Origin: a virus
Virus genome (UHGV): UHGV-0203503
Strand: one strand, 5' to 3'
Length of the DNA stretch: 14,519 nt
A program made the position numbers and the translations under genes. The notes below the pieces were generated by a model that searched no databases, was not told the origin of the DNA, and saw only the letters and a program-made list of their open reading frames with translations. Shown here one piece after another: positions 186 to 11,094 of this stretch (position 1 is its first letter; each line of letters begins with the position of its first letter).

Positions 186-229
186 TCTGCCTCCTGTTTA
201 AATAATGATTAATTCTATCACAACAGGTA

Positions 230-260
230 TTGACGTAGATTGAGTGGTGGTGCATAGTAT
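230..260 (+). promoter_or_regulatory. sigma70-like promoter P1 for the plus operon 292-2066
   Basis: -35 TTGACG 230-235, 17-nt spacer, -10 CATAGT 253-258 (or TAGTAT 255-260); ~30 nt leader to ATG 292. Carries an imperfect inverted repeat TTGACGTAGAT (230-240) / ATCTACATCAA (260-270). Confidence 0.4.
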
Positions 261-4420: not shown

Positions 4421-4431
4421 ATGTCACCAAT

Positions 4432-4458
4432 AAAAAATCCCATCACGTTGGATGGGAT
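4432..4458 (-). terminator. Intrinsic terminator (minus strand) between the small-gene cassette and the portal gene
   Basis: Stem ATCCCATC (4437-4444) / GATGGGAT (4451-4458), 6-nt loop, followed on the minus strand by TTTTT (complement of A-run 4432-4436). Sits 11 nt upstream of the portal ATG. Confidence 0.5.
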
Positions 4459-4493
4459 TATAACACGAGCTTGCAGTGGCTATGGTTGATGGC

Positions 4494-5771: not shown

Positions 5772-5801
5772 AGTGATATCTCCGATAAGCCTGATGTAGA
5801 T

Positions 5802-5830
5802 ATACTATGCGCTCGGTGTAGATTGGTCAA
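5802..5830 (-). promoter_or_regulatory. sigma70-like promoter P2b for the minus six-gene cassette
   Basis: On the minus strand: -35 TTGACC (complement of 5825-5830), 17-nt spacer, -10 TAGTAT (complement of 5802-5807), then ATCTACATCA as in P1. Confidence 0.4.
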
Positions 5831-5868
5831 GTGTGGCGATGAGGATTTATCGACATTAACAGTAAATG

Positions 5869-5897
5869 TTGACGTAGATATGTTGGTGACGTAGAAT
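5869..5897 (+). promoter_or_regulatory. Near-consensus sigma70 promoter P2 for the plus two-gene cassette
   Basis: -35 TTGACG 5869-5874, exactly 17 nt spacer, -10 TAGAAT 5892-5897; divergent from P2b. Confidence 0.5.
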
Positions 5898-5930
5898 CAT
5901 CTTATCGAAAAGAGATTAAGGAACAAGAGA

Positions 5931-6086
5931 ATGTTTGAGACTAAAAAAGAATGCGAAGCGTATATTGCCGAAACTTATGGTGCTGACTACGTTAAATTTG
6001 GCATCGTTACCGCCCAGAAAGTCGGCCCAACAATCGCCAAGATGCTTGGTATTAAAGAAGGTTACTACCCATCAAATGCCTACTAA
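5931..6086 (+). CDS. Small hypothetical protein, 51 aa (below ORF-track cutoff)
   Basis: ATG 5931 preceded by AAGGAA (5918-5923); translation MFETKKECEAYIAETYGADYVKFGIVTAQKVGPTIAKMLGIKEGYYPSNAY; alternative reading to the TTG-initiated 117-aa track ORF. Confidence 0.4.
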   Translation: MFETKKECEAYIAETYGADYVKFGIVTAQKVGPTIAKMLGIKEGYYPSNAY

Positions 6087-6090
6087 TTAC

Positions 6091-6288
6091 ATGCCGAGAT
6101 GCCTTCGTGAAATACCGAAGGCAAAAGTGAAGCCAAGAAATCAAGCAATAAAAGAGGCAAAGATTGAGGCTTTCAATATTGCCATTTCGATAATAAAAGA
6201 GAGATGCAGAGATGAAAAGTCTGAACGCGTTAAATCAAACATGTATGCAGCTGTGAGTGATATATCAAGATTGAGAGATGAGCTTTAA
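6091..6288 (+). CDS. Small hypothetical protein, 65 aa
   Basis: ATG 6091 in the frame of track ORF 5935-6288; basic, helix-like sequence (MPRCLREIPKAKVKPRNQAIKEAKIEAF...); RBS weak, start uncertain (an in-frame ATG at 6076 is also possible). Confidence 0.3.
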   Translation: MPRCLREIPKAKVKPRNQAIKEAKIEAFNIAISIIKERCRDEKSERVKSNMYAAVSDISRLRDEL

Positions 6289-6317
6289 GCCCTCATTTGA
6301 GGGCTTTATTTTTATCG
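6288..6317 (+). terminator. Intrinsic terminator of the plus cassette, lying 7 nt from the terL stop
   Basis: Stem AGCCCTC (6288-6294) / GAGGGCT (6299-6305), loop ATTT, followed by TTATTTTTAT on plus; no T-tract on the minus side. Confidence 0.55.
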
Positions 6318-7736
6318 CCTGCGTCGGATTAGCATTCCGCTTCCGCGCTGGACGATGTGGTCATTTAGTGCGTAACGAACGGCATCCCAGAAGTGGTTAA
6401 ATGCATCGACAATATCAGTCAGCACATTCCCCGTCAGCTTATCGACCTTGTAGCTGTACATCGTTGCTTCATTCTGCATTTCCTTGCATCGCTCGTGGAT
6501 GATGATGCTGTCACATCCGCGCAGCCACGTGACGCCATCCTCAACGCTTCCCGGCCATTTAGTGCACGGGTGAATATCGAATCCAGAGCGCTTGATGTGA
6601 CTGATAGTCTCAGGTCGAGCGCAGTCTGCATACCATCGCGCGCGCTTAGCCATAGGGAATGATTGCTCCATCGCAGCTGGCGTATCGGTAATCTCAAGGC
6701 CAACCTTGCCATACTCTCGATTAATATAAATGTTGCGCCGTCCATCTGGTAATTCTTCGATATAAACCTCAACCATCGCGGTAGGATCGGTGGAAAACCC
6801 GAAGTCCATCCCGAAGTATGGGCCATGCCATTCAGGTTTGACTTCAAAGTCATCAACGCGCCATTTGCCACCGAATACCTGCTCGTCGCTTCGCTTGTTA
6901 AAGGCTCCCATCCAAATCCAGCGGTAACGGTCGTAATCAGTTCGTTTCATTTGCTCCATGGCGGATGGCAGCGGTGTATCCCAGAACCACGGGTTGTCTG
7001 AATAGTTACATTCGATAATCAGAATTTCATCATTTTCGAATATTCCATCAACCATCTGTGAGTGATAAGGAGCAATCCAGTTTTTCCATGTCGGGTCTGT
7101 TTCCTTGTTGGGGTTAAATGAGCACCACAGCTCGGAATTGGCGGCGCGGATGGTAGGCACGAGAATGTCCCAGCTTGTCTGGCTGACGTTCTCCGCTTCC
7201 TCTACCCAACCGACGGTAATGCCAGCAAAGCCCTTAACGGTTGTCTGATTGCGATACAACCCCTTAAAGCGAAACTTTGCTTTGGTCTTCTTGTGTGTTA
7301 TCTCGTTGTTGATAACGCGAAACTCAGCTGACTCGCCTTTGCGGGCTATCTCATCAACAAGCTCCTGATAGCTTGAGTCTTCAATGGATTGCTGAATCTC
7401 ACGGAAGCAGGCAAAGCGGTCGGGTCGAAACCTTGCGCGCTCAGTAAGGATGGTGATAATTGTTCTCGTTTTCCCTGACCCACGCCCACCATAGACAAAC
7501 TTGAAACGTTTGGGGTATAGCAGACGTTCCAGCTTTGCCGGAATGAGGTGGTCGGCATGAGTGGTTGCATTGGTCACATCATCAACGCCAGTAGCGGTCA
7601 TCCTTAACCGCTTGATGACGTTTTTCTGCATGTCGCAGATACCAAAGATAGCTGATTCTGCGACATCTGTCATTGCATCATCAATCTGCGCTTCCAGCTT
7701 TTCTATTGCCAGCGCGGAGAGGCGTTTACGAGCCAT
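6312..7736 (-). CDS. terL: Phage terminase large subunit, ~474 aa
   Basis: Walker A VYGGRGSGKT, Walker B-like ITVGWVEEAE, nuclease-domain-like GMDFGFSTDP. Start set at ATG 7736 (GGAG RBS, 11-nt overlap with the terS stop) rather than track start 7805. Confidence 0.88.
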   Translation of the reverse strand: MARKRLSALAIEKLEAQIDDAMTDVAESAIFGICDMQKNVIKRLRMTATGVDDVTNATTHADHLIPAKLERLLYPKRFKFVYGGRGSGKTRTIITILTERARFRPDRFACFREIQQSIEDSSYQELVDEIARKGESAEFRVINNEITHKKTKAKFRFKGLYRNQTTVKGFAGITVGWVEEAENVSQTSWDILVPTIRAANSELWCSFNPNKETDPTWKNWIAPYHSQMVDGIFENDEILIIECNYSDNPWFWDTPLPSAMEQMKRTDYDRYRWIWMGAFNKRSDEQVFGGKWRVDDFEVKPEWHGPYFGMDFGFSTDPTAMVEVYIEELPDGRRNIYINREYGKVGLEITDTPAAMEQSFPMAKRARWYADCARPETISHIKRSGFDIHPCTKWPGSVEDGVTWLRGCDSIIIHERCKEMQNEATMYSYKVDKLTGNVLTDIVDAFNHFWDAVRYALNDHIVQRGSGMLIRRRR

Positions 7737-8172
7737 TCTGCTGCTCCAGCAATTTCTCCAGTCGTTCAAGGCGCGCGGCGAGTTCGGTAATTTCCTGAAT
7801 ATCAAGGCCAGACTTGATAATGTCTGCCATCATCTTTCCGATGTCGGCAGGAACAACGCCAGTGGATACACCCTTGATGATTGCGTCCATTTTTTGCACC
7901 GGGGTTCCGTCAGCAGGGAAGTCGAACTCCACAGGAGGAGCTACAGGCTTAGGAATTGGGTTGAGCCTCAGGAATATCTCTCGAAGCATACTGGTAGCCT
8001 GAGCGTCTTCGCATGTCATCGCCTTATTGATGTAATAAGTGACGAATTCAATCTCACTCATCGGTGTATTCGCAGCACGAAGCGCCTCAAGCAGCACAGT
8101 GCGATAGCTCTTTCCGCGCGGAGGTGGTTGATTTGTAGATGAAAATTTGTGTTTTGGATTTGGGTTTGCCAT
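7726..8172 (-). CDS. terS: Phage terminase small subunit (probable), 148 aa
   Basis: Immediately upstream of and overlapping terL; basic N-terminus and helical C-terminus; start at ATG 8172 (track ORF extends to 8247 but first ATG is at codon 26). Confidence 0.6.
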   Translation of the reverse strand: MANPNPKHKFSSTNQPPPRGKSYRTVLLEALRAANTPMSEIEFVTYYINKAMTCEDAQATSMLREIFLRLNPIPKPVAPPVEFDFPADGTPVQKMDAIIKGVSTGVVPADIGKMMADIIKSGLDIQEITELAARLERLEKLLEQQNGS

Positions 8173-8229
8173 GTCTATTGTGTTCTTTGAGTAACTCACA
8201 TACGTTAATTTTAACACATAGACGTAGAT

Positions 8230-8255
8230 AAAAAAGAACCCGCACAAGGCGGGTT
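8230..8255 (-). terminator. Intrinsic terminator (minus strand) ending the small-gene operon before terS
   Basis: Stem AACCCGC (8237-8243) / GCGGGTT (8249-8255), 5-nt loop, followed on minus by CTTTTTT (complement of 8230-8236). Confidence 0.5.
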
Positions 8256-8299
8256 AAGGTTGGGTGATGATATGAGTGAAAGTAGTGGTGGTTATGTGC

Positions 8300-8473
8300 T
8301 TATTGTACACCATCATTATCACGCTTGCCAGCATGGCACCATGCGTTTTCATCACGAGTCTGCACATGAACGATTTCAAGCGCATCAGGGAATGTCTTTG
8401 CTATCTTCGCGATAAAATCGTCCAATTCGTGCTGTTTGGCGAGTTGCCAGACTTTCTGTTTAGTGGTTTGCAT
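8300..8473 (-). CDS. Hypothetical protein, 57 aa
   Basis: ATG 8473 with GAGGG 9 nt upstream; part of track ORF 8300-8539; last gene before the terminator. Confidence 0.3.
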   Translation of the reverse strand: MQTTKQKVWQLAKQHELDDFIAKIAKTFPDALEIVHVQTRDENAWCHAGKRDNDGVQ

Positions 8474-8639
8474 TTGCAAAAGCCCTCGTAGAGCACATGT
8501 ATTTAATCTCATGCACACCATTGTCTGGCACAACCTCAATGCGATTGCTGAGCTGCACCATCATGTAATGGCATGTCATCATACCGTCCCAGTATCGTTT
8601 CCACATAAATTCCATTGCGGCGTTGATATCGTCAAACAT
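8460..8639 (-). CDS. Hypothetical protein, 59 aa (below ORF-track cutoff)
   Basis: ATG 8639-8637 overlaps the end of the upstream gene (ATGTTTGA); translation MFDDINAAMEFMWKRYWDGMMTCHYMMVQLSNRIEVVPDNGVHEIKYMCSTRAFANANH. Confidence 0.3.
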   Translation of the reverse strand: MFDDINAAMEFMWKRYWDGMMTCHYMMVQLSNRIEVVPDNGVHEIKYMCSTRAFANANH

Positions 8640-9841: not shown

Positions 9842-10075
9842 TCATACCCTAACCCCCATAATTTCTTCGTAATAGCCATCTTCTTCAAACTCAATCTTTG
9901 CGATTTTGAGCGCATCCTCATCTGTGATATCAATCGCTTTGAATTTGCATTTTGACAGCACTATGCAGCCTGACAGGATTAACCACTTATTCCACAAGCG
10001 CACTCGCCTGATTGTCCTGCTCGAATACATCTTGTTCTGCACAAACCAGAACTCGTATGTTTTTACTTTCGCCAT
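9842..10075 (-). CDS. Hypothetical protein, 77 aa
   Basis: ATG 10075; GGTGA upstream; track ORF. Confidence 0.45.
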   Translation of the reverse strand: MAKVKTYEFWFVQNKMYSSRTIRRVRLWNKWLILSGCIVLSKCKFKAIDITDEDALKIAKIEFEEDGYYEEIMGVRV

Positions 10076-10605: not shown

Positions 10606-10634
10606 AATCTACATCAGTTGTGATTCTACGTCAA
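10606..10634 (-). promoter_or_regulatory. sigma70-like promoter P4 for the minus operon 10575 to 8300
   Basis: Minus strand reads TTGACG (complement of 10629-10634), 17-nt spacer, TAGATT (complement of 10606-11); same architecture as P2. Confidence 0.45.
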
Positions 10635-10640
10635 CAGCAA

Positions 10641-11025
10641 GTTACCCAAATAACGATAATTCCGGTAACCAGGAGCATAAAAACCGGTAACTGTTATAAA
10701 TCAATTACTTACTATTCATTCATGCCATTTTACCATCAAAAAAGTTACCGGAGTTACCGGTCGCCCGGTAACTTGAAACCCGCATGCATCAAGGCTCTCA
10801 GGAGAGTTACCGGATTTACCGGGTAACTCCTTACATATATAAAAAGTGTTGAATTTCTTATTATGTATATGATTTATAAGCGTTTTATTCAATTTTGATA
10901 CAAATTCTCATTTTTGAAATTTTTATAAGCTCATATGCAAAAAATCCGGTAACTACGGTAACCCTATAGTTATCAATAGCTTACGTCGGTAACCGCTCGG
11001 TAAAAACCCGGTAACTCCGGTAACT
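10641..11025. repeat. Iteron-like array: about 14 copies of CCGGTAAC / GTTACCGG flanking an AT-rich core (10828-10944)
   Basis: Exact CCGGTAAC at 10662, 10684, 10765, 10946, 11008, 11017; exact GTTACCGG at 10744, 10753, 10806; one-mismatch copies at 10815, 10955, 10986, 10997; palindrome GTTACCGGtcgcCCGGTAAC 10753-10772; IHF-like TATCAAtagcTTA 10971-10983. Confidence 0.7.
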
Positions 11026-11065: not shown

Positions 11066-11094
11066 TTGACGTGTACATAATATTCATGTATATT
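11066..11094 (+). promoter_or_regulatory. Near-consensus sigma70 promoter P5 for the plus operon 11120-13784
   Basis: -35 TTGACG 11066-11071, 17-nt spacer, -10 TATATT 11089-11094; ~25 nt leader to AGGAGG and ATG 11120. Confidence 0.5.

Follow-up and report, generated by a model that had tools for sequence, protein, structure and literature searches.

A candidate extended -10 promoter behind the intrinsic terminator upstream of the putative terS gene in a Skatevirus-like siphovirus

The extended -10 promoters recognised by sigma70 of Escherichia coli form the TGnTATAAT class, exemplified by galP1 (Mitchell et al. 2003, as cited in PMC3950348). Promoters of this kind have no discernible -35 element and are independent of sigma region 4, and the sigma70 holoenzyme recognises them through sigma region 2, without a -35 box (PMC3950348). 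In the Thermus phage P23-45, with its protein gp39, and similarly in T4 with AsiA, one set of genes is served by promoters of the -10/-35 class, with the later structural genes having extended -10 promoters that lack the -35. Phage lambda, at PR'-6S RNA-tR', instead has a -10-like element, a short leader and an intrinsic terminator directly upstream of the packaging genes, in a system that depends on Q. The late promoters governed by C and Mor of Mu, by Ogr of P2 or by RinA, finally, lie upstream of terS and morphogenesis genes and also have no -35, with a fixed site for the activator and usually no TG.

The DNA analysed here, which in its full length of 14,519 nucleotides is referred to as the window, comes from a Skatevirus-like Salmonella/E. 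coli siphovirus. Its segment 7600-8700 matches 166 phage records, the best of them being the Salmonella phages PJN025 and Seszw of the genus Skatevirus, at about 91% identity, and the locus is common to related siphoviruses of E. coli, Shigella, Klebsiella and Aeromonas having genomes of 45-48 kb. All genes of the locus are on the minus strand. They comprise a cluster of small genes without assigned function (from about 10575 down to 8300), of which the last is a DUF7334 gene recognised by its family match (8539..8300), then a non-coding gap, a 148-aa open reading frame defined by its frame and ATG (7726..8172; putative terS) and, directly following it, the large terminase gene terL (6312..7736; matching Terminase_3 at 3.4e-37 and also Terminase_3C). 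A preliminary description of this DNA had given the spacing between the terminator and the terS ATG as about 60 bp, which agrees with the 57 nt found from the end of the T-run to the ATG; the start itself is to be corrected, with the ATG at 8172..8170 and position 8173 being out of frame. A search of the entire window against Rfam at gathering thresholds matched no family, and a literature search for transcription data on the Skatevirus group found none. We think it likely that the gap is a terminator-promoter junction, at which host sigma70 restarts transcription at an extended -10 element (8216..8208) belonging to a genome-wide class.

The upstream small-gene operon ends, as had already been proposed, at an intrinsic terminator (8230..8255, minus strand). 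The stem, AACCCGC/GCGGGTT, joins 8255..8249 to 8243..8237 by seven pairs, five of which are G-C, around the 5-nt loop CTTGT, and it is directly followed on its 3' side by C8236 and a run of six T residues (8235..8230). Its folding energy was -10.6 kcal/mol, as compared with -2.8 +/- 1.7 kcal/mol for shuffled sequences, and within a 76-nt context the terminator was the sole structure (z = -3.2). In related phages at least seven different stems occupy the same position, most of which fold well. These stems were folded one by one; a formal covariation pair count was not made, because their registers differ and MAFFT cannot align them into one structure. The stems AACCCGC, AAGCCAGC, AACCCTC/GAGGGTT, AGCCTCG/CGGGGCT and CCCTGCC/GGCGGGG all folded, with energies of -9 to -14 kcal/mol, and one further stem having a single mismatch (contig L033) was weaker, at -4.7 kcal/mol. 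The stem of contig L068 shows a compensatory double change from G-C to U-A, for which the phage KFS-SE2 has the single-change intermediate. Taken together, the structure appears to be a real terminator that insulates the packaging genes from the upstream operon.

The end of the terminator T-run (8226-8230) is also the point at which many relatives lose homology with the window. Akira, C1, STGO-35-1, swi2, KFS-SE2 and others share about 90% identity with the window as far as the T-run extends; past it, their promoter-proximal sequence differs and the terS slot is occupied by an unrelated gene. The terminator upstream of terS is a mosaic junction where differing terS modules are joined.

On the gene strand, 14 nt past the T-run, the gap contains the extended -10 promoter element TGtTAAAAT (8208..8216, minus strand), with TG at 8216-8215 and the hexamer TAAAAT at 8213..8208. 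The hexamer agrees with TATAAT in five of six positions and the TG stands one base upstream of it. At the position of a -35 element, assuming a 17-bp spacer, the sequence is CTTTTT, having one match of six, and the best hexamer over spacers of 16-18 bp is TTTTTT, with two of six. A consensus scan of the minus strand of the gap accordingly passed no -35/-10 pair, and the earlier statement that no convincing pair is present there was thus correct. Extended -10 sites with a hexamer matching in at least five of six positions are rare, with only four found in the window on both strands (29 kb). Each of the four is intergenic and belongs to the minus strand, three being placed before the lysis, portal and terS genes and one within the non-coding region at 10.7 kb. 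At four such sites per 29 kb, the chance of one landing in the terS gap is about 0.7%. The loose pattern TGNTANNNT, by comparison, was unenriched window-wide, with 25 occurrences found versus 30.6 expected.

By sequence criteria, namely the TG, the T-12, A-11 and T-7 of the hexamer and the absence of a -35, the element in the gap can be assigned to the sigma70 extended -10 promoter class. It resembles the extended -10 promoters of E. coli in having TG one base before a good -10, no usable -35, a T-12/A-11/T-7 pattern that is invariant in relatives and a plausible leader length; it differs from those promoters, galP1 included, in that it is phage-borne, lies 14 nt after an intrinsic terminator and is a predicted promoter. 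With the usual distance of 7 nt from the -10 hexamer, transcription is predicted to start at A8201 +/- 2, which would give a 29-nt A-rich 5' leader (8173..8201, minus strand). This predicted leader has a dG of -2.2, being less structured than its shuffles, and no clear or strong Shine-Dalgarno sequence was seen within it (8173-8201, CAAAGAACACAATAGACATG). Relatives of the Klebsiella type have AAGGA 12 nt upstream of the putative terS.

Upstream regions of the homologous gene were collected from 12 GenBank phages and 52 IMG/VR contigs. Among 47 distinct upstream regions, with genes that are either homologous or positionally equivalent, 46 have TGnTAnnnT after the T-run, and contig L066, which has no T-run, also carries TGgTAAACT. 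Nine versions of the nonamer were found (TGGTAAGAT, TGTTAAACT, TGTTAAAAT, TGTTAATAT, TGATAGAAT, TGTTACAAT, TGCTAAACT, TGGTAATAT and TGGTAGAAT), which agree throughout in just five positions, T, G, T, A and the last T, with varying flanks. Those five are the most strongly conserved positions of sigma70 extended -10 promoters. Between the TG and the hexamer the relatives have any one of the four bases, and their hexamers TAAGAT, TAAACT, TAATAT, TAGAAT and TACAAT all retain the T, the A and the final T. The preliminary description had stated that terS has no recognisable sigma70 promoter, a claim that this conserved extended -10 element in the gap contradicts.

The position of the element is also informative. 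From the end of the -10 to the ATG there are 32-36 nt in most relatives, with 25 in Akira and 43 in C1, whereas the TG follows the terminator at 5, 7, 12, 13 or 25 nt. Since the distance to the ATG is held and that to the terminator is variable, the element is placed relative to the gene and not to the terminator. Regarding the T-run itself as a promoter element was rejected, with its distance to the -10 ranging from 5 to 25 nt. The element is furthermore found behind unrelated terminator stems (contigs L036, L065 and L068) and before unrelated genes in the terS slot, where it reads TGaTAGAAT in Akira and TGtTACAAT in C1, STGO-35-1, swi2 and KFS-SE2.

Elements of the same class precede other genes of the window. 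Before the portal gene (ATG 4420) is a perfect extended -10, TGtTATAAT (4457..4465, minus strand; whole cassette 4430..4465), which overlaps the 5' arm of an intrinsic terminator (4459..4436, dG -12.0). Because the predicted start of the portal transcript falls in the loop of this hairpin, transcripts from that promoter would be devoid of the 5' arm and would not be halted by the terminator, unlike those arriving from upstream. The same promoter-in-hairpin arrangement is present before the portal gene of the related phage Bas79, with TGcTATAAT. The lysis genes (ATG 185) have TGaTAGAAT (212..220, minus strand) and no -35; this element is back-to-back with the canonical promoter TTGACG-17-CATAGT (230..258, plus strand), and it has no terminator before it that could be read through. 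Its counterpart in Bas79 is upstream of the endolysin gene.

In the complete genome of Bas79, an element of this class ending 15-50 nt before the ATG was found in eight of 28 operon-start gaps, as compared with 0.27 expected (P ~2e-10). Seven of the eight precede late-type modules, namely terS, portal, endolysin, the capsid module, the major tail gene, the tape-measure module and the tail fibre. The remaining one is upstream of the helicase operon, so that the extended -10 class is not strictly 'late'. The small-gene clusters, as well as the helicase/primase genes in the window, have near-consensus canonical promoters, as exemplified by TTGACG-17-TAGAAT at 5869, TTGACG-17-TAGATT at 10634 (minus strand) and TTGACG-17-TATATT at 11066. 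The packaging genes lack the canonical -35/-10 type that other parts of the genome have, and are preceded by a separate promoter class.

The small-gene transcript would, in the mechanism that we propose, begin at the canonical promoter at 10634..10606 and halt at the terminator at 8255..8230. Host sigma70 polymerase would then re-initiate 14 nt further on, using TGtTAAAAT without a -35, and from a start near A8201 it would produce an mRNA with a 29-nt unstructured leader, carrying the 148-aa open reading frame together with the coupled terL. We infer this use by the polymerase, as well as the start site, from the element and its conservation. In principle no phage activator would be needed, since promoters of this class are read by sigma region 2 independently of region 4 and the -35. 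A phage factor may nevertheless modulate the extended -10 class, and a factor-free sigma70 promoter does not itself account for a delayed expression of the packaging genes. It had been suggested earlier that the packaging genes are expressed either from a late promoter needing a phage activator or by antitermination. The parts of that suggestion which stand are the insulation by the terminator and the separate class of promoter; the need for a phage factor does not follow, given the conserved extended -10 element in the gap.

A conserved block precedes the terminator (8256..8313, minus strand), consisting of ATGGTGTACAAT (8313..8302) and then a G-free, CA-rich leader that is unstructured. Within ATGGTGTACAAT, which overlaps the stop codon of the DUF7334 gene, is the -10-like hexamer TACAAT (8307..8302), with a TG abutting the hexamer. 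The promoter scan lists CTGGCA-18-TACAAT at the block, with no -35 that is conserved among relatives; in contig L068 the block reads TGcTATAAT. The left boundary of the block is identical in four upstream contexts (L007, L022, L034 and L068 compared), the neighbours of which include the DUF7334 gene, an HNH gene and non-coding DNA. The block is either a second promoter, which would yield an RNA of about 65 nt (55-73 nt) ending at the terminator, or the 3' untranslated region of the upstream operon. With this second conserved -10-like element before the terminator, read-through may make some contribution to the expression of terS.

This block bears on one alternative, by which terS and terL would be transcribed by polymerases that pass the terminator with the aid of a Q-like factor, coming either from the early operon or from ATGGTGTACAAT about 70 nt upstream. 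We regard such read-through or antitermination as improbable. It would resemble lambda PR'-6S RNA-tR' in the conserved -10-like element, the short leader and the terminator directly before late genes, it would agree with the left boundary of the block being the same in four upstream contexts and with the recurrence of the form ATGGTGTAnAAT in the terS-proximal region of C1-type phages, and it would be eased by a terminator that is only moderate, having a 7-bp stem and a dG of -10.6. With read-through, however, an extended -10 that is separately conserved after the terminator and at a fixed distance to the ATG would be superfluous. The same class is also found elsewhere without a terminator, as for lysis, or with the promoter inside the hairpin, as for portal. 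The resemblance to lambda is furthermore limited: the locus has an independent, conserved promoter past the terminator, with no Q gene found; its upstream element has neither a -35 nor the usual TGn register, with the TG instead abutting the hexamer; and its leader is only about 65 nt long, G-free and unstructured, unlike put-type RNAs. No member of the Q and N antiterminator families was recognised in the open reading frames of the window or in the 51 unnamed proteins of Bas79. It is the promoter conserved past the terminator, the lysis promoter that has no terminator, the portal promoter within a hairpin and the absence of any regulator family among the proteins searched that make us disfavour antitermination, and retain a restart at the extended -10 as the preferred explanation.

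As a post hoc observation, the block segment CUCAUAUCAUCACC is complementary to GGTGATGATATG, in which the gene at 10075..9842 has its ribosome-binding site and ATG. PJN025 and Seszw_1 likewise have the GGTGATGATATG site; Bas79 lacks the target.

The gap also has an isolated, exact copy of GACGTAGATA on the plus strand (8221..8230), at the place where it was first noted. On the gene strand it reads TATCTACGTC, and in relation to the predicted start it would occupy about -29 to -20, within the spacer that precedes the -10, and its final base coincides with the last T of the terminator run. The family GAYGTAGAW, to which it belongs, was found eight times in the window, as compared with 0.40 expected. 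The other seven copies all fall within or next to canonical promoters (at about 230, 5869 and 10634), where two of them overlap the -35 (tTGACGTAGA), two overlap the -10 (GAYGTAGAAT or TAGATT) 17-18 bp downstream and three flank the hexamers. Only the copy at 8221 is not associated with a canonical promoter; it is preceded by TA and not TT and has no -10 at 17 bp. Considering instead the plus-strand TAGATA as a -10 for an antisense open reading frame (ATG 8273), we rejected this possibility, finding no -35 and no TG; the frame of that antisense reading frame is, as judged by eye, not conserved between the window and PJN025.

A second alternative is that the -10 in the gap needs a phage factor, either one that binds GACGTAGATA or one that appropriates sigma in the manner of T4 MotA/AsiA. 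The absence of a -35, the strong over-representation of GAYGTAGAW, the location of a motif copy just upstream of the -10 here and of several late-type promoters in Bas79, and the delay that is expected for structural and lysis genes could all be understood in that way. The late promoters of Mu C/Mor, P2 Ogr and RinA are likewise without a -35 and upstream of terS and morphogenesis genes. In those promoters, however, the activator site is fixed and a TG is usually missing, whereas here the candidate site is not conserved and the TG is invariant. Specifically, GACGTAGATA becomes ATCTACGCC in the Klebsiella type and ATCTG in the Sf11, DS8 and LPSTLL types, and it is absent in Akira, C1 and L036; the relatives with an altered or missing GACGTAGATA all retain the TGn-10 element. 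The distance from the motif to the TG also varies among the late-type promoters of Bas79, being 4, 10, 11, 23 or 30 nt, and some of the Bas79 copies belong to divergent promoters: those at 7796 and 19624 each form the -35 (TTGACGTAGAT) for a canonical promoter on the opposite strand, and that at 24582 overlaps the -10 of another divergent canonical promoter. In well-studied cases, moreover, the TG dinucleotide dispenses with an activator (PMC3950348), and no known activator family was found in the proteins searched. An activator acting through GACGTAGATA is disfavoured because relatives that retain the promoter have an altered copy or none, and we consider activator dependence to be as unlikely as read-through. 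We conclude that GACGTAGATA would not be required for the terS promoter.

The canonical promoters (230-267, 5793-5897 and 10606-10634) carry GAYGTAGAW twice, over the -35 and over the -10, with 17-18 bp between the copies. Since the conservation of GAYGTAGAW exceeds what is needed by sigma70, the motif may be the binding module of a regulator.

That the nonamer is not a promoter at all, being instead a terminase or packaging recognition site adjacent to terS or a translation signal within a longer mRNA, is highly improbable, for although packaging sites are often located beside or inside terS and unusual translation signals are conceivable with a leader having no clear Shine-Dalgarno, the element is kept before unrelated terS-slot genes (Akira and the C1 group), which disfavours a packaging site because such genes are unlikely to share one, the same element precedes portal, lysis, capsid and tail modules, and its invariant positions are those that are best conserved in sigma70 extended -10 promoters.

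It had been proposed to look for late-activator or antiterminator genes elsewhere in the genome. Such a search, covering the open reading frames of the window and the 51 unnamed proteins of the relative Bas79 and confined to known families, recognised no Q-, N-, Mor/C-, Ogr- or RinA-like protein and no sigma factor. A wider programme can still be imagined, although we hold it to be doubtful, in which promoters of the -35/-10 type bearing GAYGTAGAW, for the small-gene and replication genes, are set against extended -10 promoters placed after or inside terminators, for packaging, head, tail and lysis, with a small phage protein switching between the two classes and possibly with a G-free small RNA aimed at ribosome-binding sites. 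The switch could, speculatively and by analogy with gp39 of P23-45 or AsiA of T4, be a protein that disables the recognition of the -35 by region 4 of sigma70; alternatively, it could be a repressor that binds GAYGTAGAW. The likeness to P23-45 and T4 lies in a -10/-35 class for one set of genes and an extended -10 class, without -35, for later structural genes. The differences are that no gp39- or AsiA-like protein was recognised here and that one extended -10 serves the helicase operon.

With a conserved extended -10 in the gap, the apparent lack of a promoter before terS is no anomaly, and there is no exotic mechanism to invoke. The junction is an ordinary one, of a known kind, which for the Skatevirus-like group has not been described previously. 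The analysis provides a testable transcription map for a widespread group of phages, namely Skatevirus and its relatives, which feature in biocontrol work and form part of the BASEL collection, and this map consists of two promoter classes together with terminator-promoter cassettes at the borders of modules. It also points to where a factor that switches between the promoter classes might be sought. As the short cassettes must be retained, the map should be of practical use for phage engineering and genome reduction. In clone 300S, a genome-reduced derivative of seszw, the deletions end within the DUF7334 gene and leave the promoter region far upstream in place (PMC9825161), so that this derivative does not bear on whether terS has a promoter of its own.

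The identity of the gene that follows the promoter was also assessed. For the 148-aa open reading frame, Pfam gave no significant match, the only PHROG match was to phrog_9747, of unknown function, and a sequence profile search of the PDB found nothing. None of its 70 homologues carried a functional name from any source, the few that are named being called 'hypothetical protein', and an hhalign comparison with the annotated terS of Akira gave nothing. Significant matches of the protein in BFVD were to unnamed proteins only. An AF2 model (pLDDT 80.8, pTM 0.39) has three short helices (residues 23-34, 40-53 and 56-70), followed by a helical hairpin (91-104 / 109-147), the second helix of which is 39 residues long. 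This predicted fold is compatible with a small terminase and not diagnostic for it. The name terS, as used from the outset, is hence correct as to the place of the gene directly upstream of terL and has no family, name or fold match behind it, the label being a positional one.

The order of a small open reading frame followed by terL recurs in all of the relatives examined, and in Akira an unrelated gene in that slot is annotated as terminase small subunit. The ATG of terL (7736) overlaps the end of the 148-aa open reading frame (ATGGCTCGTAA, 7726-7736), which suggests that terL is translationally coupled to it within one transcript; because of this overlap, both are probably on one mRNA. From its position and size, the coupling to terL and the interchangeable slot genes that are annotated as terS in relatives, we find it reasonably probable that the 148-aa open reading frame is terS. 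PJN025 and Bas79 have an extra open reading frame of 48-52 aa between the terS-slot gene and terL, which is absent in the window.

A short plus-strand unit (5869-6306), wedged between terL and a minus-strand small-gene cluster, runs convergently towards the end of terL. The unit is equipped with a near-consensus promoter (TTGACG-17-TAGAAT at 5869) and a terminator (6287-6306) of its own, and its open reading frames match phrog_8009 and phrog_5305, both of unknown function. Another feature was seen at 10660-11025, where nine exact copies of GTTACCGG were found as compared with 0.12 expected, many of them in inverted pairs. This array lies within a non-coding region of about 500 bp that separates the small-gene operon, running leftward, from the helicase/primase genes, which run rightward, and it is probably an iteron or operator array, or a replication origin. 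One of the GTTACCGG pairs forms a hairpin before the fourth extended -10 site of the window, TGgTAAAAT (10735..10727).
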